Shown: positions 15,279-44,596 of the stretch, piece after piece
How the letters are laid out: every line of letters starts with the position of its first letter
Numbering within the stretch: position 1 is the stretch's first letter
Assembly (NCBI GenBank): GCA_030019215.1
Contig: JASEEZ010000003.1
Span: 12,109 to 76,108, forward strand
Reading direction: 5' to 3'
DNA length: 64,000 bases
Source: Actinomycetota bacterium
GTDB lineage: Bacteria; Actinomycetota; Aquicultoria; Subteraquimicrobiales; UBA9087
Position numbers and translations under genes: made by a program
Notes under the pieces: model-generated
The model's database searches: none
What the model was told of the DNA's origin: nothing
Seen by the model: only the letters and a program-made list of their open reading frames with translations

Positions 15279-16682
15279 ATGGGCAAAAGAGTAAAATGGA
15301 TGATCTTGGTTGGTGCGGTACTCCTGGTATCAGGGGTGGCCTGGGGTGTTGTCGGAGCCAGGCGAGCTGCCGTGGAGGTGGAGACGATCACTGTCGAGAA
15401 GGGAGATATCTCCACCGTGGTGAGCGCCTCAGGAGAGACGATCGCCACAAAAGAGGTTGCCCTCAATTTTAAGATATCCGGCAAGCTCGATGAGGTTTTG
15501 GTCAAGGAGGGAGATGCTGTCGAGGCCGGTCAAACTTTAGCCCGTTTGGACACCAGAGACCTGGAAAATCAGCTTGAGCAGGCGAGGAAGCAGGTGTCCG
15601 TGTACAGCGCGGCATCCAGCAGCGCCGTGGTCACTCTGAGCGCCGCCAACAAGAGCCTCGGGAGTACCCAGGAGAAGACCACCCAGGACATCGCCGCCGC
15701 CCAGAGTGCTCGGAATGCGGCGAAGGCCAGCCGGGACTGGGCTCTCGTGGTGCGCGAGGAAGCCGTGAAGGAATGGCAAGATTTGGTGAAGAAATACGAG
15801 CATCCCATCTATCACCTCCCAAACTATACAGCGGCGCAGGAGGCCGAGGTGGATGCAGCTAAGGCAGCGGCCGATACGGCTCTAACAACCTATTTAAGCG
15901 CCGACGCCTCTTACAGAGCGGCGGAGGAAGCCCTGGTCACCACCGAGCGCGGTGCTCAAGTTCAGTTGACGACCACGGGGAACCAGGTGAGCACGGCCCG
16001 GGCCCAGTATAAATCGGCCCTGGCCCAGCTCCAGCTGGGGAGAGTCGGGCGGAAAATGGCGGAGGATAGTTTGAGCGACGCCACTCTGGTGGCCCCCTGC
16101 GCCGGGAGAGCGATCTCCATCTTGGCCGAGGAAGGGGAGTTCGTCTCGGGCGGTGCAGGGTTAAGCGCCTCTCTAACCGGAGTATCTTCTGACTTCATTG
16201 TCCTGGCCACCATGGATGAGATACAGGTCAAAGCCGATGTCGATGAGGTCGATATTGGGAGAGTCAAGGTTGGTCAGTCTGCCAATATCATCATGGATGC
16301 GTATCCGGCTAGAGTTTTGAAGGGAAAGGTAGTCGAAATTGCTCTGGCCTCTTCGACTACCAAGGGTGGAGGAATAGCTTTTCCCGTGAAGATTTTAATC
16401 TCTTCCGTTGAGGGCGTCGACCTCCGGCTGGGAATGAGCGCGGATGTGGATATCTTGGTGGACACCAAAGAGGATGTGGTTAAAGTTCCCGTCGAGTCGG
16501 TAGTCAGACGAGACGGGAAGGATCTAATCTTCGTTGTGGAGGACTCCATCGCCGGGATGCGCCAGGTTGAACTGGGTCTCTCCAATGAGGATTTCTACGA
16601 GGTCAAGAAGGGAATCAAAGCCGGTGAAAGGGTTGTCACCAGGGGAGCAAGCAAGCTTAAAGGCGGCGAAAGAGTGAAGTGA
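15279..16682 (+). CDS. HlyD/MacA-family periplasmic adaptor (membrane fusion protein)
   Basis: N-terminal TM helix, long coiled-coil, then beta-barrel/lipoyl-like segments typical of MFPs. Immediately upstream of a MacB-type ATPase and permease. Confidence 0.7.
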
Positions 16683-32436: not shown

Positions 32437-32457
32437 TTGAGTTATAATTTAAGAGGA

Positions 32458-34731
32458 ATGGACCCATTGGCGTTTGTGGACTCGATCAAGAGCAATCCCA
32501 CTTACAAGGGGCAGATCGTCCACGTGGAGAGAATTCCTCCCAGAGAAGCAATCTTCGGAAAGCCGGAGCACCCTCTGCCTTCCCGAATCAAACAGCGCTT
32601 GGCTGATCTGGGGATCACTGAATTATATGGTCACCAGGCTAGGGCCATCGACCTCGTCCGTCAAGGGAAGAACGTGATCGTAGTCACTGGCACGGCGAGC
32701 GGCAAGAGTCTTTGCTACAATGTTCCCGTCTTGGAGGCCATTTTGGAGAACGCCAAGAACACCGCCTTCTATCTCTTTCCCACCAAGGCTTTGGCCCAGG
32801 ATCAACTCAGGGTTCTTGGGGAGTTTGATTTGGCCCCTCTGGTTTCGGTTACCTACGACGGAGATACCCCCGGCGATGAAAGAGTTTGGATTAGGCGCAA
32901 TGCCAATGTGGTCCTCACCAATCCAGACATGCTCCACTATGGGATCTTGCCCAATCACAGGATGTGGGGGAATTTTCTTCTCAATCTCAGGTACGTCGTT
33001 GTGGACGAGGCACATGTCTTTCGCGGTGTCTTCGGTTCCAACGTGGCCAACCTGATCAGGCGTCTGAGGAGGCTCTGCAAGCACTACCGCTCTAACCCTC
33101 AGTTCACCCTGTCCTCGGCGACCGTGGCCAATTCCGGAGAGCATGCCCGAAGGCTGACCGGACTTGAAGTCGAGGTCGTTGACGAGGATTGTTCCCCCCA
33201 CGGAGAAAAGTTCTTCCTATTCTGGAATCCACCCTATCTCGATGAGGCCAAGGAGAGGCGTCGGAGTTCCAACTCGGAGGCCGCTCACCTTTTCGCCTCG
33301 CTCGTTAAGAGTGGCGTCAGGAACATCACCTTCAGCAAATCTCGCCAGACGGCGGAGCTCGTCTTCAAATACGCTCGCGAAGAGCTTAAGGGCAGTCCGG
33401 AACTGTTGGATAGGATGAGGTCGTACCGAGCTGGATATCTGGCCCCCGAGCGCCGGGAGATCGAGCGAGGGCTCTTCGGTGGAGAGCTTTTGGGGGTGAG
33501 CTCCACCAATGCACTGGAGCTTGGGGTGGATATCGGCACTTTGGATGCCTGTGTGATCAATGGATATCCGGGAACCATCGCTTCCACCTGGCAACAGGCT
33601 GGGAGAGCGGGCCGCAAGCGGGGAAGTTCTCTGGCCATCCTGTTGGCCCAGGATGACCCCCTGGATCAGTATTACATGAAGCACCCCGAGGCCTTCTACG
33701 GCAAGAGCTGTGAGGAGGCCATCGTGGATTTCGAGAATCCCTCCATCTTCTTCCAGCACCTTACATGTGCCGCTTGTGAACTTCCCTTAACCAAAGAGGA
33801 TGAGGAGTTCTTCGGTCGTGCCTATCCTGAAATGGTCAAATCTCTCCTCTCTCGGGGGGAGCTCATGGAGAGAAAGTCTAGGTGGTTCTGGGTGGGGCGG
33901 AGGGTTCCTGCCCAGGAGACCAACATCCGTTCCGCCTCTCGGGATGTCTACTCCATAGTCGAGCTGGAAACGGGGGCCCTTCTCGGAACCATAGACTCCA
34001 CCACCACCTTCATTTACGTCCACCCGGGGGCCATCTATCTCCATCAGGGCGATTCCTACCTGGTGGTCGATCTGGACTTGGCTGCTAAGGTTGCCTTTGT
34101 GGAGAGAGCCTGCGGCGATTACTACACTCAGCCCAGGGAAGAGACGAGTCTGGTTGTTCTGGGGGAAGATTTGCGGAGAGAAATTGGCCGGACGAGGGTC
34201 TGCTTCGGGCGAGTCGATGTCACCAGCCATGTCATCGCCTTCCAGCGAAAGCGAATCTTCACGGGTGAGGTTTTGGGGACGGAGAAGCTGGATTTGCCGC
34301 CCCAGCGCTTTAAGACGGAGGCCTTCTGGTTTACCATCCCGGATGATGTCCTCTCCCAGCTTGCCCCGAGTGAGCGGGAGCTGGCCGGGGGCATTCACGC
34401 TGTAGAACACGCCGCCATCGCTCTGCTCCCCATGTACGCGATGTGCGATAGGTGGGACATTGGCGGGGTCTCCACCCCATTCCATCCACACACGGGCTTT
34501 CCATCCATCTTCATCTACGATGGTTTTGAGGGCGGAGTAGGAATCGCTGCCCGCGGATATGATCTCTGTGAGAATCTTTTAAAGGAGACCTTGAGCCACA
34601 TCGGGGACTGCGAATGCAAGGTGGGTTGCCCTTCCTGCATCCAGTCACCCAAGTGTGGAAACTGGAATGAACCCCTGGATAAAAAGGTGGCCATCGAGAT
34701 TTTGGAGAAAATATTAGGGAGGGGTAGGTAG
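32458..34731 (+). CDS. ATP-dependent helicase of the YprA/MrfA family (DEAD/DEAH helicase plus C-terminal DUF1998 zinc-ribbon domain)
   Basis: Walker A 'GTASGKS'. 'LFPTKALAQDQ'. 'VVDEAH'. C-terminal 'CECKVGCPSCIQSPKCGNWNEPLD' (DUF1998 4-Cys). ATG 32458 aligns with the Bacillus YprA N-terminus; TTG 32437 is the alternative. Confidence 0.8.
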   Translation: MDPLAFVDSIKSNPTYKGQIVHVERIPPREAIFGKPEHPLPSRIKQRLADLGITELYGHQARAIDLVRQGKNVIVVTGTASGKSLCYNVPVLEAILENAKNTAFYLFPTKALAQDQLRVLGEFDLAPLVSVTYDGDTPGDERVWIRRNANVVLTNPDMLHYGILPNHRMWGNFLLNLRYVVVDEAHVFRGVFGSNVANLIRRLRRLCKHYRSNPQFTLSSATVANSGEHARRLTGLEVEVVDEDCSPHGEKFFLFWNPPYLDEAKERRRSSNSEAAHLFASLVKSGVRNITFSKSRQTAELVFKYAREELKGSPELLDRMRSYRAGYLAPERREIERGLFGGELLGVSSTNALELGVDIGTLDACVINGYPGTIASTWQQAGRAGRKRGSSLAILLAQDDPLDQYYMKHPEAFYGKSCEEAIVDFENPSIFFQHLTCAACELPLTKEDEEFFGRAYPEMVKSLLSRGELMERKSRWFWVGRRVPAQETNIRSASRDVYSIVELETGALLGTIDSTTTFIYVHPGAIYLHQGDSYLVVDLDLAAKVAFVERACGDYYTQPREETSLVVLGEDLRREIGRTRVCFGRVDVTSHVIAFQRKRIFTGEVLGTEKLDLPPQRFKTEAFWFTIPDDVLSQLAPSERELAGGIHAVEHAAIALLPMYAMCDRWDIGGVSTPFHPHTGFPSIFIYDGFEGGVGIAARGYDLCENLLKETLSHIGDCECKVGCPSCIQSPKCGNWNEPLDKKVAIEILEKILGRGR

Positions 34732-34781: not shown

Positions 34782-35252
34782 ATGTACATTGGTGTGATCG
34801 GCGCCGGACGGTGCGATGCGAGAACCTTCGATATCGCTTATGAAGTTGGCAAGCTCGTTGCACAGAGGGGGGCTATTTTGGTCTGTGGTGGCCTGGGGGG
34901 AGTGATGGAGGCCGCCTGCAAGGGAGCCAAGAGCAAAGCGGGCTTAACGCTCGGCATTCTTCCCTCCGAAGACAGAAAACAGGCCAATCCATATGTGGAT
35001 GTGGCCGTTCCCACAGATCTGGGCGAGGCCAGAAATGCTCTGGTGGTTCGAGCGGCCGATGTGCTCATCGCCGTTGGTGGGGAGTTTGGCACGTTGTCCG
35101 AGATTGCTTTGGCTTTGAAGATTGGAAAACCCGTCGTTGGCATCGGCACTTGGGAATTGGCCAAAAGGGGTAGACCTATCGAGGCCATTCTGGTTGCCAA
35201 GGATCCTCACGAGGCCGTAGAAAGAGCCTTTCAGGCGTTCTTGAAGTCTTGA
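34782..35252 (+). CDS. TIGR00725/LOG-like Rossmann-fold nucleotide-binding protein
   Basis: 156 aa. 'IGVIGAGRCD...ILVCGGLGGVMEAACKGA...IAVGGEFGTLSEIALA' is the LOG/SLOG pattern. Confidence 0.65.
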   Translation: MYIGVIGAGRCDARTFDIAYEVGKLVAQRGAILVCGGLGGVMEAACKGAKSKAGLTLGILPSEDRKQANPYVDVAVPTDLGEARNALVVRAADVLIAVGGEFGTLSEIALALKIGKPVVGIGTWELAKRGRPIEAILVAKDPHEAVERAFQAFLKS

Positions 35253-36073: not shown

Positions 36074-37879
36074 ATGGAGATCATCGAAACCCCCGAAGGA
36101 CGTTGCAAGCAGTGTTATGCCTGTGTTCGCCTCTGTCCCGTTAAAGCCATAAAGGTTGGCCAGGGACAGGTGAAAGTCGATAGCAAAAAATGCATTTTTT
36201 GCGGTCGCTGTATAGTCGCTTGTTCCCGAGGAGCCAAGGTTGTCGTCTCGGAGAGGGAGGCGGTCGAGGATTTGTTGGCCAAGGGCCAGGCCGTGGCAAT
36301 CCTGGCTCCCGAGTATGTGGCCTACTTTCATCCCACCGATCCCCTCAGAGTTCAAGCTGCCCTGTTGAAAATGGGTTTTCATGTTGTTGAGGATACTATC
36401 GTCGGCGAGGAGCTCGTGGCCGATGAGTATCTGCGCTTGTTCCGGGAGTCTAAGGAGCCCGTCATCCGCTCCGCTTGCCCAGTCATCGTGGAATGGGTGG
36501 AAAAGTACTTCCCCGACCTCCTCTCTTATCTTGCCCCCCTCGTTTCCCCACCCATAGCTCAGGGAAGATTGTGCAAGGAGATTTATGAGGGTGCCGCCAC
36601 GGTCTACATCGGTCCCTGCCTGGCCGTGAAGGCAGAGGCCAGAGCGGAGGGCCTTGAGGAGGCTCTCGATGCCGTCTTGACCTTTCCCGAGCTGGAGGAG
36701 GTGTTCAAGGGGGCGAAGATCGACCCAAAGTCTTTAAAGGGACTTCCTGCCGAAAAAAAGACCTCCAAATTGGCTGGCTTGCGCATTCTCCCTCAAAGGG
36801 TTTCCCTCTTCGGGGGTTTCCCTCGGGAGGAGATCGCCAGGAGAAGTCTCTTAGACCGCGATATTCGAGTGGTAAGGGATGTGGGCGAGATGCAACCCTT
36901 GGTGGAGGCCTTTGGCCGGAAAGAGGTGAAACCCAAGATAATCGATGCCCTGAGCTGTGATGGTTGTCTGGCCAGCCCCTTGATGGGAAACTCCCCGCGG
37001 CTAGCTATAAGTAAACTGAGCCTCTTTGCGAGGCGAAAGGTTGTGGAGAGGCACTACCAGAAATTGGCGAAGGGGGCGAGGAGCGCCGAAGATCGCACCA
37101 AAATACTTTCGGGGTTACCCTCCATCGAGATGGGGAGGAAATTTTCGTCCAAGAAGGTGGACTTTCCTCTGCCTCATGAAAGAGAGCTCAAGGAAATTTT
37201 GGCTTCCGGGAAGATCAAATCGGTGGAAGACATCCTCGATTGTGGCGCTTGTGGTTATGATACCTGCGAGGCCACGGCAATCGCCATTTATCAGGGGGAT
37301 GCGGAATGGGGGATGTGCTTTCCCCATCAAAGAGAGGAAATGGTTCGCCTAATGAAAGCCCTGGAGAAAACCTCCATAACCGATGGGGTGACCGGCTTGT
37401 TCAACTACCATGGTTTGACCCACTGTGTGGGGAAGGAGATCAAGCGATGTCAAAGATATCAGGATACTTTTTCGGTGATCATCTTTGACGTCGATTACTT
37501 CAAGCTCATCAACGACACGTACGGGCACGTGAAGGGCGACTTATTGCTCAAGCTTATTGCTGATGTCTTAAGGCAGAATTTGCGGGAGGCGGACTCCGCA
37601 GCTCGCCAGGGAGGCGATGAGTTCACGGTGGTCCTGCCGGAGACGACAAAAACGGAAGCATTCGCCGTGGGGGAGAAGCTTCGTCAGAGGGTCGGTGAGG
37701 TCTCCTTCAAATTAGATAGTAAGGAAAAGGTGAAGGCCACCATAAGCCTGGGCATCGCCGGTTATTCGCCCGGGATAGCGAATCCCGAAGAGTTGATGGA
37801 GTTGGCCGATCAGGCCATGTACAAGGCCAAGAAGAGTGGCAGAAATTGTGTCTACATTGCTCCCGATAAGGGTGTCTGA
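36074..37879 (+). CDS. [FeFe]-hydrogenase-like iron-sulfur sensory domain fused to a GGDEF diguanylate cyclase
   Basis: N-terminus has two ferredoxin-like CxxCxxC sites ('CKQCYACVRLCP', 'CIFCGRCIVAC'). Degenerate H-cluster-like motifs ('SACPVIVEW', 'GPCLAVKAE', 'LSCDGCLASPLMG'). Cys-rich 'CGACGYDTCEA'. C-terminal GGDEF with 'RQGGDEFTVVLPE'. Confidence 0.7.
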   Translation: MEIIETPEGRCKQCYACVRLCPVKAIKVGQGQVKVDSKKCIFCGRCIVACSRGAKVVVSEREAVEDLLAKGQAVAILAPEYVAYFHPTDPLRVQAALLKMGFHVVEDTIVGEELVADEYLRLFRESKEPVIRSACPVIVEWVEKYFPDLLSYLAPLVSPPIAQGRLCKEIYEGAATVYIGPCLAVKAEARAEGLEEALDAVLTFPELEEVFKGAKIDPKSLKGLPAEKKTSKLAGLRILPQRVSLFGGFPREEIARRSLLDRDIRVVRDVGEMQPLVEAFGRKEVKPKIIDALSCDGCLASPLMGNSPRLAISKLSLFARRKVVERHYQKLAKGARSAEDRTKILSGLPSIEMGRKFSSKKVDFPLPHERELKEILASGKIKSVEDILDCGACGYDTCEATAIAIYQGDAEWGMCFPHQREEMVRLMKALEKTSITDGVTGLFNYHGLTHCVGKEIKRCQRYQDTFSVIIFDVDYFKLINDTYGHVKGDLLLKLIADVLRQNLREADSAARQGGDEFTVVLPETTKTEAFAVGEKLRQRVGEVSFKLDSKEKVKATISLGIAGYSPGIANPEELMELADQAMYKAKKSGRNCVYIAPDKGV

Positions 37880-37996: not shown

Positions 37997-39016
37997 ATGA
38001 AGAAAGCCATTCTCCATACGAGACTGAAGGACAATAAGGTAAAATGCAACGTTTGTCCGAGGCGGTGTACCATCGCTCCGGATAAGCGCGGTTATTGCGG
38101 GACCAGGCTAAACAGAGGGGGAACCCTGTACACTCTGATTTATGGCAAGGCCTCCTCTATCGCTGCCGACCCCATCGAGAAGAAACCCCTTTTTCATTTC
38201 TATCCCGGCAGTTCCGTTCTTTCCTTCGGTACGCTGGGATGTAATCTCAGGTGCAAGCATTGTCAGAACTGGCAGATCGCTCACGCCGAACCGGATCTTG
38301 AGGGAAGGGGGCTGACCGATGTCTCTCCCGAGGAGGCCGTGCGGCTGGCCGAGAGATATGGTTGTCGGGGAATTGCCTGGACATACAACGAGCCCATCAT
38401 CTGGCTTGAGTATACTCTGGACACGGCCAAACTCTGCAAGGAGCACGATCTGTACACCGTTTACGTCACCAACGGCTACATAGCCCCCGAAGCTCTCGAT
38501 GCCATGGGGCCCTACCTCGACGCTTTCAGGGTGGACGTCAAGGGGTTCAGCAATGATTTTTACAGGTGGCTTGCCCAGGTGCCCGACTTCACCCCCATCC
38601 TTGAGGCCGCCATCCGGGCTAAGGAGAAATGGAATATGCACGTGGAGGTGGTGACGAATATAATCCCCACGCACAATGATGACGAGGGGCAACTTCGGGG
38701 AATCGCCAGATGGATTCGAGAATCCCTTGGTGCTCTCACCCCCTGGCATGTGACCCGCTTCTACCCCTATCTTGAGCTCTCGCATCTCTATCCAACACCC
38801 GTTGAAACCATCGAGCGGGCCAGGGAGATAGGCTTCGAAGAGGGGCTCTGCTTCGTCTACGTGGGCAATATCCCGGGACACCCCGGTGAACATACCCAGT
38901 GCTACAACTGCAAAAACCTGGTCATCGAGAGAAGAGGCTACTCTCTTGGGAGGTACGAGGTCGAGGACGGGAAGTGTAACTTCTGTGGCGCCGATTTGAA
39001 TATAGTCGGCGGCTAA
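37997..39016 (+). CDS. radical SAM enzyme, AmmeMemoRadiSam-system type (AmrS / PFL-activase-like)
   Basis: 339 aa. 'CNLRCKHCQNW' CxxxCxxC radical SAM motif. N-terminal 'CNVCPRRCTI...GYCG' auxiliary Cys cluster typical of AmrS. No AMMECR1 or Memo partner in the window. Confidence 0.65.
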   Translation: MKKAILHTRLKDNKVKCNVCPRRCTIAPDKRGYCGTRLNRGGTLYTLIYGKASSIAADPIEKKPLFHFYPGSSVLSFGTLGCNLRCKHCQNWQIAHAEPDLEGRGLTDVSPEEAVRLAERYGCRGIAWTYNEPIIWLEYTLDTAKLCKEHDLYTVYVTNGYIAPEALDAMGPYLDAFRVDVKGFSNDFYRWLAQVPDFTPILEAAIRAKEKWNMHVEVVTNIIPTHNDDEGQLRGIARWIRESLGALTPWHVTRFYPYLELSHLYPTPVETIERAREIGFEEGLCFVYVGNIPGHPGEHTQCYNCKNLVIERRGYSLGRYEVEDGKCNFCGADLNIVGG

Positions 39017-39077
39017 TCTCACCTTTTGCCACTCGTTCCGAGTTCCGTTATTAGGAATTAGTTATTCGAAATTCGTC

Positions 39078-39215
39078 TGTCAGCTTAGAGCTCGGAGTTT
39101 AGAGCTTAGAGAAAAATCTTTTGTCTCTACGCTCTCTGCTCCCTGCTCTCTGCTTTCCTCGTTATTCGTCCTTTCGCCCTTCGTCCCTGACCCCTGGCCT
39201 CTGTCAACCGTCAAC
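39078..39215. repeat. ~135 bp repeat element, copy A (CAGCTTAGAGCTCGGAG...CTCTACGCTCTCTGCTCCCTGCTCTCTGCTTTCCTCGTTATTCGTCC...CCTGGCCTCTGTCA)
   Basis: About 95% identical to the reverse complement of 54062-54200. The termini are shared with a diverged third copy at 61141-61380. Confidence 0.7.
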
Positions 39216-39362
39216 CAACTTTGTGTCCCCACATATCTCTATTAATCTCAATTTATCTCCACGAATCCCCATCTCGCCGAAATCCAGCATCCAACCGCCA
39301 ACTAGTTTTAGAAGGTGTTCCTCTTTTTTACCCGAAATATAAATTGAAAAGGGGCGGGGAGA

Positions 39363-39800
39363 ATGAGAACGAAACGGGCTGTATCTTCAGGGGGAGTAAT
39401 CTTCCGCCGGGCGGGAGAGGGATTTGAGGTCGCCATAGCCAGAAGGAAAGAGGATGTCTGGTGTCTACCCAAGGGATTGGTGGAGGAGGGAGAGGAGCTG
39501 GAGGGAACAGCTCTGAGGGAGGTTGAAGAGGAGACCGGACTCTCCGGTAAGATCGTTGGCAAGATTGGCGTCGTCGATTACTGGTTCTACTGGAAACCGG
39601 AGGATGTTCGATACCACAAGTTTGTCCACTTCTATCTGGTTGAATACCAGAAGGGAAGCGTGGAAGACCACGATTACGAGCTGGAAGAGGTGAGGTGGGT
39701 ACCCATCGACGAGGCGACAAAGATGCTTTCCTACAAAAGCGAGGTGGAGATGGTGAAAAAAGCAGAGAGGATGCTCCGCGGCCGAGGAGGGGGAAAGTGA
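39363..39800 (+). CDS. NUDIX hydrolase
   Basis: Nudix box 'GLVEEGEELEGTALREVEEETGL'. Confidence 0.8.
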   Translation: MRTKRAVSSGGVIFRRAGEGFEVAIARRKEDVWCLPKGLVEEGEELEGTALREVEEETGLSGKIVGKIGVVDYWFYWKPEDVRYHKFVHFYLVEYQKGSVEDHDYELEEVRWVPIDEATKMLSYKSEVEMVKKAERMLRGRGGGK

Positions 39801-40747
39801 TAGCCCTTCCCCATCAGTGGGAGCGGGCCATAGAAAGGATATTGGATGCTCCGAAGGGGGTTGTCTTCCTGTTGGGGGGCATCGATACCGGGAAGACTAC
39901 CTTTTCTCAGGCTCTGGCTGCTGCGGCGACCGAGAAAGGGGTGAAGGTGGGAATCATCGATGCCGATGTCGGCCAATCTACCTTTGGTCCTCCAGCAACT
40001 ATTGGGTTCGTCTCCATCCCGAAATCGCCAAAGTTCGAGAAGCTTGAGCCCAGCGATCTTTACTTCGTGGGCAACAACTCCCCCCGGGGGCACCTGTTGC
40101 AGGCGGTCGTGGGGGTCAAAAAGATGGCTGAGAGGGCTTTTCGAACGGGTTGCGAGATGGTCATAGTGGATACCAGTGGCCTCATCGCTCCCCCCATGGG
40201 GGAGGCGTTGAAGTTCCATAAGATAGATATACTCCGTCCCAGGCACATCGTGGCTTTCCAAAGGGCTAAAGAGCTGAAGAGCATCTTGGAATTTCTGGGA
40301 GGCTACGGGTATTTCAGGCTACACCGTCTGGCGGTTCCGTCCACGGTGCCCACTATCTCCACGGAGAAAAGGATAGAGATTCGAAGAAAAGCCTACAGCC
40401 GCTATTTCAAAGGTGCCCAGCTGGTTGGGTTGGATCTGGGGAATGTCTCTACATTTCCTCCTGATGCTGATATCGGGGGAAGGCTCGATCTGATGCATCT
40501 TTTGGTTGGCCTGAAGGATGATAGGGGGCAGACTTTGGGCATTGGCATCCTGACTCACTTCTATCCCAGGAGGAATTCGGTGGAGGTATTAACTCCGGTG
40601 GGTCCCAGTAGCCGAATTTCCGGTCTTGTGCTGGGGTGCATCAAGCTGCTTCCTCATGGTGAGGAGGTGGAGAGAATGCCTCCCTGGAAGGTCCGGAAGG
40701 AGGTCTCGACCCCGGAGGGCTCTCCGACCCGAGGGGGAAAGAAATGA
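39797..40747 (+). CDS. Clp1/Grc3-family P-loop polynucleotide kinase-like protein
   Basis: GTG overlaps the NUDIX stop (GTGA). Walker A 'GGIDTGKTT'. Clp1-type Walker B 'IIDADVGQS'. The track ORF 39695 starts inside the NUDIX gene. Confidence 0.6.
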   Translation: MIALPHQWERAIERILDAPKGVVFLLGGIDTGKTTFSQALAAAATEKGVKVGIIDADVGQSTFGPPATIGFVSIPKSPKFEKLEPSDLYFVGNNSPRGHLLQAVVGVKKMAERAFRTGCEMVIVDTSGLIAPPMGEALKFHKIDILRPRHIVAFQRAKELKSILEFLGGYGYFRLHRLAVPSTVPTISTEKRIEIRRKAYSRYFKGAQLVGLDLGNVSTFPPDADIGGRLDLMHLLVGLKDDRGQTLGIGILTHFYPRRNSVEVLTPVGPSSRISGLVLGCIKLLPHGEEVERMPPWKVRKEVSTPEGSPTRGGKK

Positions 40748-41352
40748 GCCCCTCTCCCAAAGAGATATTCTCGAAATACCTGGATAAGGCCATAGCGGAG
40801 AGTCTTTCCTTGGCTGAGGAGGTGAGGGAGTGCAAGCGATGCGACCTTCCCGGCCGGGGGGATTTTTCTCCTCTTCCTGGGTCTGGCTATCCCTTGGCTG
40901 ATATTTTCTTGGTTAAGGATTTCCCCAACCGATTAGAGAGTGAGGAGGGCATCCCCTTTTTCGGGGAAGTGGGGGAGGCTTTAAGGCGCGCCTTTGTCAC
41001 CCTCGAGTTGGAGGTTGCCACTCTGTATGGTACCAATTCGATAAAGTGCCACATAACGGATCGGGTAAGTGAGCAGCAGATCGATGCCTGTTCTGAGCAT
41101 TTGAAGCTGGAAATAGAGATAGCTGAACCCAGGTTGATTTTAGCCATGGGTTCTCTAGCGGTATCCACTCTGCGGAGAGCTATCGGGCAAGGAGATGGGG
41201 AGCTTTCCTTCGAGCCAGGCGAGTTATTTCGGCCACGCCCGGACATTCAGGTTCTGGTTACCCACGATCCGGAGGCGGCTTTGAAGAAACCCCGGTTGAA
41301 GGGGGAGCTTTGGAGGGATCTCAAGAGACTCAAAGAACTATGTGGTAAATGA
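40744..41352 (+). CDS. uracil-DNA glycosylase superfamily protein, family 4-like Fe-S type with a divergent catalytic motif
   Basis: 'CKRCDL' plus 'C..(14)..C' 4-Cys set. 'IPFFGEVGEAL' motif B-like. The GE(A/G)PG catalytic motif is replaced by 'VKDFPN'. Confidence 0.55.
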   Translation: MSPSPKEIFSKYLDKAIAESLSLAEEVRECKRCDLPGRGDFSPLPGSGYPLADIFLVKDFPNRLESEEGIPFFGEVGEALRRAFVTLELEVATLYGTNSIKCHITDRVSEQQIDACSEHLKLEIEIAEPRLILAMGSLAVSTLRRAIGQGDGELSFEPGELFRPRPDIQVLVTHDPEAALKKPRLKGELWRDLKRLKELCGK

Positions 41353-41353
41353 A

Positions 41354-41384
41354 AGAGGAGCCCCGCCGTCGGCGGGGCTCCTCT
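41354..41384. terminator. GC-rich hairpin between convergent UDG-like and ferredoxin genes
   Basis: AGAGGAGCCCCGCC-GTC-GGCGGGGCTCCTCT perfect 14-bp stem. Flanks are only weakly U-rich. Confidence 0.5.
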
Positions 41385-41402
41385 TGCTCCTCTCGTCCTT
41401 TC

Positions 41403-41588
41403 TCAGTCCTCTTCGATCTTGATGGCTCCCATCGGGCACTCCTCGACGCAGATTCCGCAACCGGTGCACTCTTCTTCATTGACCACCACTGATATCTCAT
41501 CTACCAGGTCGAGCACCCCATTTGGGCAGCTATCGACGCAGATTCCGCAACCTGAGCACTCGTCTTTGTCGATTACTGGTCTGGACAT
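41403..41588 (-). CDS. 2x[4Fe-4S] ferredoxin
   Basis: 61 aa. 'CSGCGICVDSCP' and 'CTGCGICVEECP'. AAGGAG sits 8 nt before the ATG (MSRPV...). The track ORF is longer (77 aa). Confidence 0.75.
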   Translation of the reverse strand: MSRPVIDKDECSGCGICVDSCPNGVLDLVDEISVVVNEEECTGCGICVEECPMGAIKIEED

Positions 41589-41705
41589 TGTTTTCACTCC
41601 TTCCCCTCGTCGCGAATTTTCAAAAGATTTATACAAAAATTACTCGCGGTTGTAAAGGGAAATTTTGAAAAAATGAAGAAATTATCGAGGGAAACGGGGG
41701 TTGCC

Positions 41706-41840
41706 ATGGGCAGAAAAATCTTTTGGGCGATTTTGATCGCCTCTCTTCTCCTCCTGGCGGTGGGCGCCTATCACCGGGAATTCTCGGAGATCTACACCAA
41801 TGCCAGGTACATCTGTCTCTCTTGTGTGGGGATCGAGTGA
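41706..41840 (+). CDS. small membrane protein (44 aa) with C-terminal CxxC, translationally coupled to the NapH-like gene
   Basis: 'MGRKIFWAILIASLLLLAVGAYHREFSEIYTNARYICLSCVGIE', translated by hand; it is not in the track because it is under 60 aa. Its TGA stop overlaps the downstream ATG (ATGA). Confidence 0.45.
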   Translation: MGRKIFWAILIASLLLLAVGAYHREFSEIYTNARYICLSCVGIE

Positions 41841-42622
41841 TGGCCGGGAAAGCGCTGTTCTTTAAGAGCCTTAAGCGCCGGATAAAATATCAACTCCTCT
41901 TTCTGGTCTTCGCCAACGCCTATTTTTTATCATTTTTGAAGGTCATTCCCTGCCCCATCCTCAACTGCTATTCTTGTCCATTGGCGACCTTTGCCTGTCC
42001 CATCGGGACGATTCAACATTTTCTGGCAATCGGTGCTTTTCCCTTTGTTGTGGTTGGGGTGCTGGGTTTGGTTGGCGCCTTTGTGGGCAGGATGACCTGT
42101 GGCTGGCTCTGCCCCTTTGGTTTTCTTCAGGATCTCATGGCGAAGTTGAGCCGCAAGAAATACCCCATCCCCCATTTCTTAACCCATTCTCGCTTTGTTA
42201 TCCTGGTTGTTTTGGTGGTTTGCCTGCCATTTGTTTTGCACGAGCACTGGTTTTGCAAGCTGTGCCCGGCGGGTGTCCTGGAAGCCGGTCTCCCGGTGGT
42301 CGTGGTCAACCCCGATATCCGTTCCCAGATAGGCTTTCTCTTTGTGGTGAAGATAGTGATCCTTGTGGGATTTCTGGTCTGGATGGTCTTTTCAAAGAGA
42401 CCCTTTTGCCGAGTGGCCTGTCCATTGGGAGCGATCCTCTCCCTTTTCAATCGGGTGAGCTTTTACAGAATAAGGGTAACCGAAAGGAAAGCAATGTTTG
42501 AGGCTTGCCGAAAACTTTGCCCCGTCGATTTAAATATCTACGAAGACCCCGACTCCATCCACTGCGTTAGAGCCCTCGATTGCCTAAAGTGCCCCGGTCT
42601 CTCGTGGGGGAAGAGGACCTAA
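41840..42622 (+). CDS. NapH/MauN-like membrane polyferredoxin (COG0348 4Fe-4S binding protein)
   Basis: TM helices with 'CPIGT', 'CGWLCPFGFLQD', 'CKLCPAGVLE' and 'CRVACPLGA' Cys motifs. ATG 41840 chosen; the track ORF 41723 is an upstream in-frame extension. Confidence 0.7.
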   Translation: MAGKALFFKSLKRRIKYQLLFLVFANAYFLSFLKVIPCPILNCYSCPLATFACPIGTIQHFLAIGAFPFVVVGVLGLVGAFVGRMTCGWLCPFGFLQDLMAKLSRKKYPIPHFLTHSRFVILVVLVVCLPFVLHEHWFCKLCPAGVLEAGLPVVVVNPDIRSQIGFLFVVKIVILVGFLVWMVFSKRPFCRVACPLGAILSLFNRVSFYRIRVTERKAMFEACRKLCPVDLNIYEDPDSIHCVRALDCLKCPGLSWGKRT

Positions 42623-42652
42623 AAGCTTACCTCCAAAAAATTTTTACCCAAG

Positions 42653-42681
42653 ACTTGACAATATTAGACTTAGTTTTTATA
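42653..42681 (+). promoter_or_regulatory. sigma70-like promoter (TTGACA-17-TATATT) upstream of dnaK
   Basis: Read directly. About 45 nt upstream of the dnaK ATG. Confidence 0.5.
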
Positions 42682-42724
42682 TTAGTAATAGGCTTAGATA
42701 ATTGTGAAAAGGAGTGATACCGAA

Positions 42725-44596
42725 ATGGCAAAGGCGATTGGTGTCGATTTGGGGACGACTAACTCTTGTGTGGCCGTCTTGGAGGCAGGAGAATCTGTGG
42801 TTATCCCCAATGCTGAAGGGGGGAGGGTTACTCCTTCCGTTGTTGCTTTTTCCAAGACGGGCGAGGTACTGGTTGGGGAGGTGGCGAAGAGACAAGCCAT
42901 CGTCAACCCCGAGCACACTATAGGGTCGATCAAACGCTTGATGGGAACGGATGAGAAGATAAAAATCGAAGACAAGGAGTACACACCGCAACAGATTTCC
43001 GCCTTCATCCTTCAGAAGCTAAAGAGGGATGCCGAGGCCTACCTCGGCGAGAAGATCACTCAGGCTGTCGTCACCGTTCCCGCCTACTTCGACGATGCTC
43101 AGCGTACTGCCACCAAAGATGGGGGAACCATCGCTGGGCTCGAGGTCTTGAGGATTATCAATGAGCCGACCGCGGCCTCCCTGGCTTACGGTCTGGAAAA
43201 GGAAAAGGAGGAGAGGATTCTCGTCTTTGACCTGGGCGGGGGAACCTTTGACGTTTCCATCCTGGAGATAGGTGAGGGTGTCTTTGAGGTCAAGTCCACC
43301 AGCGGCAACACCCATCTGGGTGGAGACGATTGGGATCAGAAGGTCATCGATTGGATGGCCAACGATTTCAAGGCAAAACACGGCATCGATTTGAGGAAGG
43401 ATAAGATGGCGTTGCAGAGGCTCAAGGAGGCGGCCGAGAAGGCCAAGTGTGAGCTCTCCTCGGCTCTCACAACCGCCATTCATCTTCCCTTCATCACGGC
43501 GACCCCCGAGGGCCCTTTGCATCTTGAGATGACCTTAACCAGGTCGGAGTTGGAGAAAATGACCTACGATCTTTTGGAGAAGTGCACTGGTCCCTTCAAT
43601 CAGGCCATGAAGGACGCCGGTATCGAACCCAAGGATCTAGATCACGTGATCCTCGTCGGCGGAGCGACGCGCATGCCCATGGTCCGAGAGCTGATCAAGA
43701 AGTTGACCGGGGGCAAGGAACCCCATAAGGGGGTCAATCCCGATGAGGTTGTGGCCGTTGGGGCGGCCATCCAGGCTGGTGTTCTCATGGGTGAGGTCAA
43801 GGAAGTGCTGCTTCTCGATGTCACTCCTTTGTCTCTGGGCATCGAGACCAAGGGCAGTATCTTTACGAAGTTGATTGAGCGAAACACCACCATTCCCACG
43901 AAGAAAAGCGAGATATTTACCACGGCCGAGGACAACCAGACTAGCGTGGAGATACACGTCCTCCAGGGCGAGCGTCCGATGGCCACAGACAACAAGACCC
44001 TGGGCAAGTTTCATTTGATCGGCCTACCACCGGCGCCACGGGGCATACCCCAGATTGAAGTCGCCTTCGACATTGATGCTAATGGCATCGTTCATGTCTC
44101 GGCAAAGGATCTCGCTACCGGCAAAGAGCAGGCGATGACTGTAACCGGGACGAGCGCTCTGGCTAAAGAGGAGATCGGCAAGATGATTAAAGAGGCGGAG
44201 GCTCACGCCGAGGAGGATCGCCGCAGGAGAGAAGAGGCCGAAGTGAGAAATAATGCCGACAATCTAATTTACGCTACCGAGAAGGCTTTGAGGGAAGCGG
44301 GCGATAAGCTGAGCGCTGAGGATAGGTCCAAGATCGAGAGCGCTCTCACCGAGGCCAAGGAGGCCCTGAAGGGGACGGATATCCAGAGAATCAAGACCGC
44401 TGCCGAGAATCTCTCGCAGGCCTCCCTCAAGATAGGCGAGATACTCTACGCTGCCCAGCAGGCTAAAAGCCGGGCTCAGACTGGTGGAGAACAGGCTGGC
44501 CCCGCCGCTGGCGAGGGTCCCGCTGAGGGCGAGGTTGTCGATGCCGACTACGAGGTCGTTGACGAGGAAAAGAAGAAGGAGAAGGAAGAAAAGTAA
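42725..44596 (+). CDS. dnaK: molecular chaperone DnaK (Hsp70)
   Basis: '[20 protein letters not shown]', '[12 protein letters not shown]', and C-terminal EEVD-like acidic tail. Confidence 0.95.

Follow-up and report, generated by a model that had tools for sequence, protein, structure and literature searches.

Three overlapping genes at positions 39363-41352 of a 64,000-nucleotide stretch of DNA from an uncultured Actinomycetota bacterium (contig JASEEZ010000003.1; this whole stretch is called the window) encode a Nudix hydrolase, a polynucleotide kinase of the Clp1 family, and an iron-sulfur (Fe-S) protein of the uracil-DNA glycosylase (UDG) superfamily. The original prediction, made from the letters of the window, read the three as a single end-healing or damaged-nucleotide processing module. 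A comparison of gene neighborhoods favors a different explanation, to which we assign a probability of roughly 0.6: the trio is a real transcription unit in which two pieces, each conserved independently, are joined in a lineage-specific way, and not a dedicated three-enzyme machine. The first piece would be a cassette of an Ap4A (diadenosine tetraphosphate)-hydrolase-like Nudix protein and the Clp1 kinase, with stop and start codons that usually overlap, and the second the UDG-like gene on its own. The trio is read as a junction of two separate neighborhoods because the synteny on the kinase side and that on the UDG side seldom coincide.

The open reading frames (ORFs) of the trio lie on the forward strand at 39363-39800, 39797-40747 and 40744-41352. 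Stop and start codons overlap as GTGA between the Nudix and kinase genes (39797-39800) and as ATGA between the kinase and UDG-like genes (40744-40747), both where the original prediction had placed them. The kinase frame has an alternative GTG start at 39695, but its homologues begin in alignment at the residue encoded by 39797, which makes the GTG at 39797 the likely start. A Shine-Dalgarno-like G-rich stretch lies 5-12 nt 5' of every start in the trio. The overlaps say little alone, since exact 4-base overlaps are common in the window and recur at 16679, 23860, 25348 and 52958.

Two hairpins bracket the genes. The first, long (73 nt) and imperfect, lies on the forward strand between the upstream radical S-adenosylmethionine (SAM) gene and the Nudix gene (39082-39154), where an inverted repeat of 35 nt with 74% complementarity folds at -35 kcal/mol (z -5.5), a value equalled by 0 of 200 shuffles. 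It could be the terminator of the radical-SAM gene or a regulatory element, and would mark the 5' edge of the trio unit. The second, found by folding, is a perfect 15-bp GC-rich hairpin, with no strand assigned, between the convergent UDG-like (+) and ferredoxin (-) genes (41353-41385; -32.9 kcal/mol, z -5.8, equalled by 0 of 200 shuffles). It has no canonical U-tract, hence its absence from the consensus terminator scan, and is likely a bidirectional terminator that forms the 3' edge of the unit. These bracketing structures are consistent with a single transcription unit, and the trio is probably transcribed as one RNA. A sigma-70 promoter scan returned none, a terminator scan gave nothing above shuffles, and an Rfam scan of 38900-41800 gave nothing above noise. 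The intergenic region 5' of the Nudix gene (39017-39362) is unusually long at 346 nt and pyrimidine-rich, the equivalent gap in locus L001 being only 33 nt, and it holds several short direct repeats in tandem, spaced at 10 and 14 nt, at 39234-39272, 39047-39074, 39082-39109 and 39131-39154.

The view from the kinase was obtained with 163 kinase loci: 3 metagenome places, 80 GTDB species representatives gathered with an alignment of seven kinase sequences, and 80 further metagenome loci. Each ORF in these loci was compared with hidden Markov models (HMMs) of two window proteins, the Nudix and the UDG-like one, and searched for the Nudix-box pattern. A Nudix gene stands directly upstream of the kinase in only 9 loci, namely L001/L004, L002, L005, L006, L007 and L009 among the first 83 and L096 and L100 among the 80 further metagenome loci. 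The kinases paired in this way are the nearest to that of the window (41-55% identity), and those with a name belong to deep-branching Actinomycetota (Candidatus Geothermocultor and Candidatus Subteraquimicrobiales). Their junction with the Nudix gene is tight, with overlaps of 4-17 nt in six lineages and L002 as the exception. It is kept while the surroundings change: the genes 3' of the kinase are mutually unrelated in L002, L006, L007 and L009 (TauE, an unannotated membrane-like ORF, a histidine kinase with LytTR), and L007 and L009 have lost the upstream radical-SAM gene. A constant junction between changing flanks is what one would expect of two genes that are translated together.

The third gene does not travel with this pair. 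A UDG homologue follows the kinase in L001/L004 only and is absent at the other 160 of the 163 loci, with 0 of the 80 further metagenome loci placing a UDG gene beside the kinase. The kinase of L001/L004 is 55% identical to that of the window, and the 12 kb around it are wholly collinear with the window, running from an Fe-hydrogenase-like GGDEF gene through radical SAM, Nudix, Clp1, UDG, ferredoxin and Fer4_5 genes to DnaK and GrpE. The original prediction had named a lack of three-gene linkage in other genomes as grounds for giving it up, and the finding of the trio in one other lineage only, within a collinear block, largely amounts to that.

The view from the UDG-like gene is complementary. 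Its protein belongs to a clade of family-4-like variants, here called K-type, and in seven lineages that carry a K-type gene (L084, L085, L086, L087/L088, L089, L094, L095) neither Clp1 nor Nudix is its neighbor. What recurs instead is dnaK, just downstream of the K-type gene in five lineages whose UDG proteins are only 35-52% identical: the window (UDG-dnaK stretch at 40744-44596), L001 (6914-10719), L084 (3685-6279), L086 (2644-4885) and L095 (5001-9092). The dnaK-grpE-dnaJ-hspR heat-shock operon is directly adjacent on the 3' side in L084, at 63 nt, and in L086, at 263 nt; elsewhere the gap holds a ferredoxin gene, alone or with one other small gene. The genome of Candidatus Geothermocultor quzhuomuensis (GCA_015711795.1) contains both pieces on different contigs, the Nudix-Clp1 pair in L006 and the UDG-like gene in L095. 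As a single case that may be coincidence, L084 also has an endonuclease V gene (PF04493, deaminated-base repair; 1332-2027) on the opposite strand, 1.7 kb upstream of the K-type gene.

Judged by its sequence, the kinase (39797-40747, forward strand; 316 aa when counted from the GTG) joins the known bacterial Clp1 group of polynucleotide 5'-hydroxyl kinases as a new member. It matches PF16575 (CLP1_P) over the full model (positions 1-188 of 188; E 1.2e-33, 117 bits against a cut-off of 26.6 in Pfam), and its motifs were read with the definitions of clasp, Walker A (GxxxxGK[S/T]) and Walker B ([D/E]hhQ) from PMC6777427. Both motifs singled out at the start are present: GGIDTGKTT as Walker A (G27-T34, nt 39875-39898) and IIDADVGQS as Walker B, whose DVGQ, within D55-Q60 (nt 39959-39976), is the form seen in NOL9. 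The Lid motif RxxxxR spans R192-R197 (nt 40370-40387), with R192 and R196 invariant, and across 18 kinase homologues G27, G32, K33, T34, D55, D57, Q60 and D125 are invariant as well. In its full-length CLP1_P match, GxxxxGKT, DhGQ and Lid arginines the protein resembles Thermus scotoductus Clp1 (Ts-Clp1) and the Clp1/Nol9/Grc3 family, and with other bacterial Clp1 proteins it shares a short form without the eukaryotic N-terminal domain and a sparse distribution. It differs from the family at the clasp, where the window's protein has TSGL at residues 126-129 and the Trp of [T/S/L]xGW is replaced by L, M or F throughout this bacterial group, D125 and T126 being invariant or nearly so. It differs also in a C-terminal domain of its own of about 110 aa, which is conserved among the bacterial homologues and bears a faint likeness to the C-terminus of NOL9. 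The best solved relatives are human NOL9 (E 4.6e-6) and Caenorhabditis elegans Clp1 (E 9e-4). Assignment to another P-loop NTPase family (ParA, MinD, SRP54) was considered and rejected: these models give only short Walker-A matches below their cut-offs.

The rarity of bacterial Clp1 asserted at the outset agrees with both available counts, 14 of 1,543 bacterial species (0.9%) in a published survey (PMC6777427) and a kinase relative in at least 420 of 185,579 GTDB species representatives. A search at E<=1e-3 finds 340 homologous clusters, labeled 'Clp1/GlmU family' or 'polynucleotide 5'-hydroxyl-kinase GRC3/NOL9'; the named homologues among the 120 listed of these are mostly Actinomycetota, with one Nitrospiraceae, and among the GTDB loci there are also Thermodesulfobacteriota, Poribacteria and Planctomycetota. 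ATP-dependent 5'-OH kinase activity has been demonstrated for Ts-Clp1 and Ph-Clp1, and Ts-Clp1 phosphorylates 5'-OH RNA, favoring RNA over DNA (PMC6777427). Family membership, intact motifs, and homology with these assayed Thermus and Pyrococcus enzymes suggest that the window's kinase would likewise phosphorylate 5'-OH RNA ends. A further point of difference from Ts-Clp1 is the pairing of the window-type kinase with a Nudix gene in one clade. The text of PMC6777427 reports no gene context: it contains neither 'Nudix' nor 'neighbor', and its sole 'operon' is in the title of a cited paper.

The first gene (39363-39800, forward strand; 145 aa) encodes what by its similarities is an ordinary small Nudix hydrolase of the Ap4A-hydrolase type. 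Its PF00293 match (E 1.9e-22, 80.1 bits against a cut-off of 21.1 in Pfam) is accompanied by an intact Nudix box, GLVEEGEELEGTALREVEEETGL, which runs from G38 to L60 (residues 38-60, nt 39474-39542) and fits GX5EX7REUXEEXGU. Among solved structures it comes closest to the Aquifex aeolicus Ap4A hydrolase 3i7u (E 1.1e-23, aligned from residue 4 to 137). With this enzyme, Thermus thermophilus Ndx1, and the N-terminal domain of mycobacterial MutT1 it shares length class and intact box. Unlike MutT1 it has no histidine-phosphatase domain, and unlike the Ap4A-hydrolase-like enzymes its gene is translationally coupled to a polynucleotide kinase. It also lies below all NCBIfam equivalog cut-offs, far under those of the RppH, MutT and MutT1 models, the best RppH model giving 30.8 bits against 116. 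Of the original description as a decapping enzyme or pyrophosphatase, the Nudix family thus stands and the recognized decapping enzyme does not; below the RppH cut-offs, a decapping role would be an inference and does not follow from family membership.

A function for the first piece can be sketched from these assignments. The kinase would move the gamma-phosphate of ATP onto 5'-OH ends, with RNA preferred, and the most likely substrates of the Nudix enzyme are dinucleoside polyphosphates, with 5'-triphosphate or Np4-capped RNA ends as possible further ones. Escherichia coli RppH itself was first described as an ApnA hydrolase. Both enzymes would then yield 5'-monophosphate RNA ends, the kind preferred by RNase E, J and Y (PMC10939160). 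Because the two reactions converge on the end that these RNases favor, the Nudix-Clp1 pair may license RNA for 5'-end-dependent decay or processing. The literature searched contains no paper that combines Clp1, Nudix and bacterial RNA repair.

The second piece, the UDG-like gene (40744-41352, forward strand; 202 aa), encodes a protein that keeps the fold of a family-4 glycosylase but not its hallmark motifs. PF03167 matches it at E 4.4e-15 (Pfam), and the best solved relative by sequence is the family-4 UDG of Sulfolobus tokodaii, 4zbx, with a full-length alignment (E 2.8e-21). An AlphaFold2 (AF2) model built on a 22-sequence alignment has a predicted local distance difference test score (pLDDT) of 95.6. 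Foldseek places this model closest to 4zby/4zbx (template modeling score, TM-score, 0.79-0.85), with 4zby/4zbx, 1vk2 and 1ui0 together at 0.77-0.85, and the likeness to family-4 UDGa enzymes (1ui0, 4zbx, 1vk2) and UdgX taken together spans TM-scores of 0.72-0.85 for the same model. The four-Cys cluster claimed originally is there: C30, C33, C102 and C116 align with the Cys of Thermus UDGa (1ui0), which we take to be the ligands of its [4Fe-4S] cluster. E65, F72 and N98 are kept as well; their equivalents in Thermus UDGa, E47, F54 and N80, line the pocket (PMC5387724).

Both hallmark motifs of family 4 are replaced. The substitution of KDFPN (K58-N62, nt 40915-40929) for the motif A sequence GE[A/G]PG, noticed at the outset, is borne out by the alignment with GEAPG and GEGPG. 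A further change, absent from the original prediction, is the loss of the His of motif B: T[Y/F]HP[A/S] becomes THDPE (T173-E177, nt 41260-41274), with D175 in the His column. In Thermus UDGa, E41 and G42 of motif A position the O2 contact, and single substitutions of either cost 2-3 orders of magnitude of activity; H155 of motif B stabilizes the leaving uracilate, and H155S cuts k2 by more than 3 orders of magnitude (PMC5387724). The protein also stays below the curated cut-offs, with 86.6 bits against 125.3 for TIGR00758 (family 4) and 87.8 against 250 for NF040953 (Arch_udg). The protein is no closer to UdgX, scoring 60 bits against 189.95 with TIGR03914 and showing no KRRIH-like insertion in alignment to UdgX chains. 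By sequence, then, it appears to be a family-4 variant that fails the motif and model-score criteria of the family.

These replacements are a property of a clade. Word-indexed protein searches gave only 3 and 10 relatives of the UDG-like protein, and exhaustive searching of 1.84 billion representatives with HMMER returned 16,959 matches, 16 of them below 1e-30 and 4,772 below 1e-10. Among the best 150 representative clusters at 50% identity, 44 are K-type and 71 carry the canonical GE[A/G]PG (GEAPG in 51 and GEGPG in 15 of the canonical matches), and the K-type proteins form a separate high-scoring group. Across the 44 K-type representatives motif A is K-x-x-[P/A]-x, in which only the Lys is invariant (KDFPN, KGAPT, KDYPN, KYAPS) and the E-G/A doublet is not conserved, appearing as D-F, G-A, D-Y and E-I among others. 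The His column of motif B holds D, N, E or S, mostly Asp or Asn (THDPE, TPDID, TFNPE). The pocket fares better: E65 is invariant, and of the 44 representatives 42 have F72 and 30 have N98. Most also keep all four Cys, C30, C102 and C116 being invariant and C33 nearly so. As judged from these alignments, the clade keeps the base-binding pocket and has lost both hallmark motifs. Public annotation calls its members 'uracil-DNA glycosylase (family 4)', and the literature searched holds no description of the variant. One subgroup (P0131, P0132, P0135, P0137) has a conserved C-terminal ...PPY and hydrophobic residues in place of the pocket Asn; its environmental abundance shows in the P0135 cluster at 90% identity, which alone comprises 710 metagenome sequences.

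Two interpretations of this protein have to be weighed. It may be a divergent but ordinary family-4 uracil-DNA glycosylase in which H174, one residue early, substitutes for the motif-B His, a reading that the full-length likeness and TM-score of about 0.8 to the Sulfolobus enzyme, the retained Cys and pocket residues, the public labels, and the conservation of H174 in the closest relatives (THDPE, THEPE, THSPE) all favor. We nevertheless hold it doubtful: the protein falls under both curated cut-offs, an invariant Lys stands where motif A has its first Gly, the doublet whose alteration is costly in Thermus UDGa is not conserved, and H174 is not conserved clade-wide (TPDID, TFNPE, TCDVE). Alternatively, and just as tentatively, the gene could represent an undescribed Fe-S family of the UDG superfamily derived from family 4, whose recurrent linkage to dnaK and co-transcription with the Nudix-Clp1 pair would suggest a part in stress-linked nucleic-acid maintenance. 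A rewired active site might excise another lesion, for example a cationic or a non-uracil one, might use Lys/Asp chemistry like that of bifunctional glycosylase-lyases, or might bind a flipped base uncut. Within the junction explanation the second piece would be a stand-alone Fe-S protein with a family-4 UDG fold that retains the stacking Phe, the Asn that reads uracil N3/O4, and the pocket Glu, and it would probably flip and bind a pyrimidine-like base with changed chemistry or specificity. Nothing points to a mechanistic tie between this protein and the Nudix-Clp1 pair.

Several observations weigh against the junction of two pieces. Two lineages with proteins that share only 47-64% identity have both kept the trio and its overlapping codons, which means that the UDG-like gene did not come under joint expression with the pair recently and that the arrangement could serve a function in these lineages. 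The Nudix-Clp1 pair, for its part, is limited to one clade that also shares the upstream Fe-hydrogenase-like GGDEF gene, so inheritance alone could explain it, and even within the nearest clade L003, L008, L097 and L098/L099 have no Nudix gene. That the pair makes 5'-monophosphate ends is conjecture from sequence, made for a Nudix protein far below the RppH cut-offs, and neither an RNase nor a ligase is found among the annotated genes near the trio.

The distribution of the pair also feeds a rival explanation in which nothing is coupled at all: the Nudix protein would be a housekeeping sanitizer of Ap4A or oxidized nucleotides, Clp1 an RNA kinase working on its own, and the third protein a DNA repair enzyme, all brought together by inherited order in a compact genome. 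The restriction of the pair to one clade with shared upstream synteny, its absence from some members of that clade, and the commonness of gene overlaps here are all as this explanation would have them, as are the neighbors of the kinase in other phyla, which are unrelated (AFOR, SDR, S49 peptidase, methyltransferase). It is unlikely all the same, for the 4-17 nt overlap of Nudix and kinase genes holds in six lineages while downstream genes change, and it outlasts the loss of the radical-SAM gene in L007 and L009.

Very unlikely is the single module first proposed, in which Nudix decapping or pyrophosphate removal, Clp1 5' phosphorylation and UDG-like base excision would serve a common substrate in end healing or damaged-nucleotide processing: the tight operon with its two overlaps and bounding hairpins, the recurrence of the overlapping trio in L001/L004, and the action of all three proteins on nucleotides or nucleic acids speak for it, but the linkage is missing at 160 of 163 kinase loci and in all seven K-type lineages, the parts sit on separate contigs in Candidatus Geothermocultor, the complete collinearity of L001/L004 leaves nothing to indicate selection on the trio itself, 4-base overlaps are common in this genome, and the annotated neighbors include no ligase, Hen1, RtcB, apurinic/apyrimidinic (AP) endonuclease or phosphoesterase, with no PADLOC match to a defense system above noise. 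Known end-healing systems resemble the Nudix-Clp1 pair only loosely, in that T4 Pnkp, Pnkp-Hen1 and RtcA/RtcB also set the gene for a 5'-OH polynucleotide kinase beside that for a phosphohydrolase. The window's kinase is of the Clp1 family and not of the T4 Pnk family, its partner is a Nudix pyrophosphohydrolase and not a 2',3'-phosphoesterase, and the ligase, Hen1 or RtcB of those systems is missing from its neighborhood.

As a module the trio has little importance, because the three-gene unit is not conserved. What remains is a Nudix-Clp1 cassette of modest interest, confined to one actinomycete clade, together with a group of UDG-like proteins in which both catalytic motifs are replaced. 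Although the activity of bacterial Clp1 has been demonstrated, the 2019 survey discusses neither a physiological role nor a gene context (PMC6777427), and the tight cassette offers the testable idea that both of its enzymes make 5'-monophosphate RNA ends. The K-type proteins are annotated as family 4 yet lack both hallmark motifs on which the classification of UDG families is based. Nor is the clade tiny, given its share of the best representatives and the size of the P0135 cluster. Characterization of one K-type protein would lead either to a new family within the UDG superfamily or to the correction of an annotation that is in wide use.

A different gene recurs near Clp1 in many other Actinomycetota. 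A PF15698 'Phosphatase' gene lies upstream on the same strand in L014 (4863-5636), in 29 other GTDB loci, and in 30 of the 80 metagenome loci L096-L175, often with an HTH_17 gene between it and Clp1 and a SAM hydrolase gene (PF01887) downstream. Its protein has no solved relative and no NCBIfam match, and no paper on it was found in the literature searched. The evidence for it as a general phosphoesterase partner of Clp1 is weak, and the candidate was set aside: the gene is always 297-3251 bp away, never overlapping, with other genes between.

The genes around the trio in the window are chromosomal housekeeping genes (aspartate kinase, ASD, the MrfA-like helicase, and dnaK-grpE-dnaJ-hspR-clpB), and a comparison with PHROGs gives only generic Nudix matches and families of unknown function, with no phage signature. 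Directly upstream of the trio, at 37997-39016, is the radical-SAM enzyme of the AmmeMemoRadiSam system (TIGR04337, 337 bits); the annotated neighboring genes include no AMMECR1 or Memo match. It is syntenic with the Nudix-Clp1 pair in L001, L002, L005 and L006. The gene before it (36074-37879) encodes a protein of 601 aa in which ferredoxin-like Fe-S domains are joined to the C-terminal domain of an [FeFe]-hydrogenase large subunit and to a GGDEF diguanylate cyclase domain; from this architecture it looks like a redox- or H2-sensing cyclic di-GMP synthase. The same type of gene lies upstream of Nudix-Clp1 or Clp1 in L001, L003, L006, L007 and L009. Farther out, 4-7 kb upstream of the trio, the MrfA-like helicase (DEAD and MrfA Zn-binding domains) is followed by SLOG cluster-4 and YbaK-like tRNA-editing proteins (stretches 32437-34731 and 34782-35252). 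SLOG cluster-4 and tRNA_edit genes also precede the Fe-hydrogenase-GGDEF gene in L001, and the tRNA_edit gene alone does so in L003.

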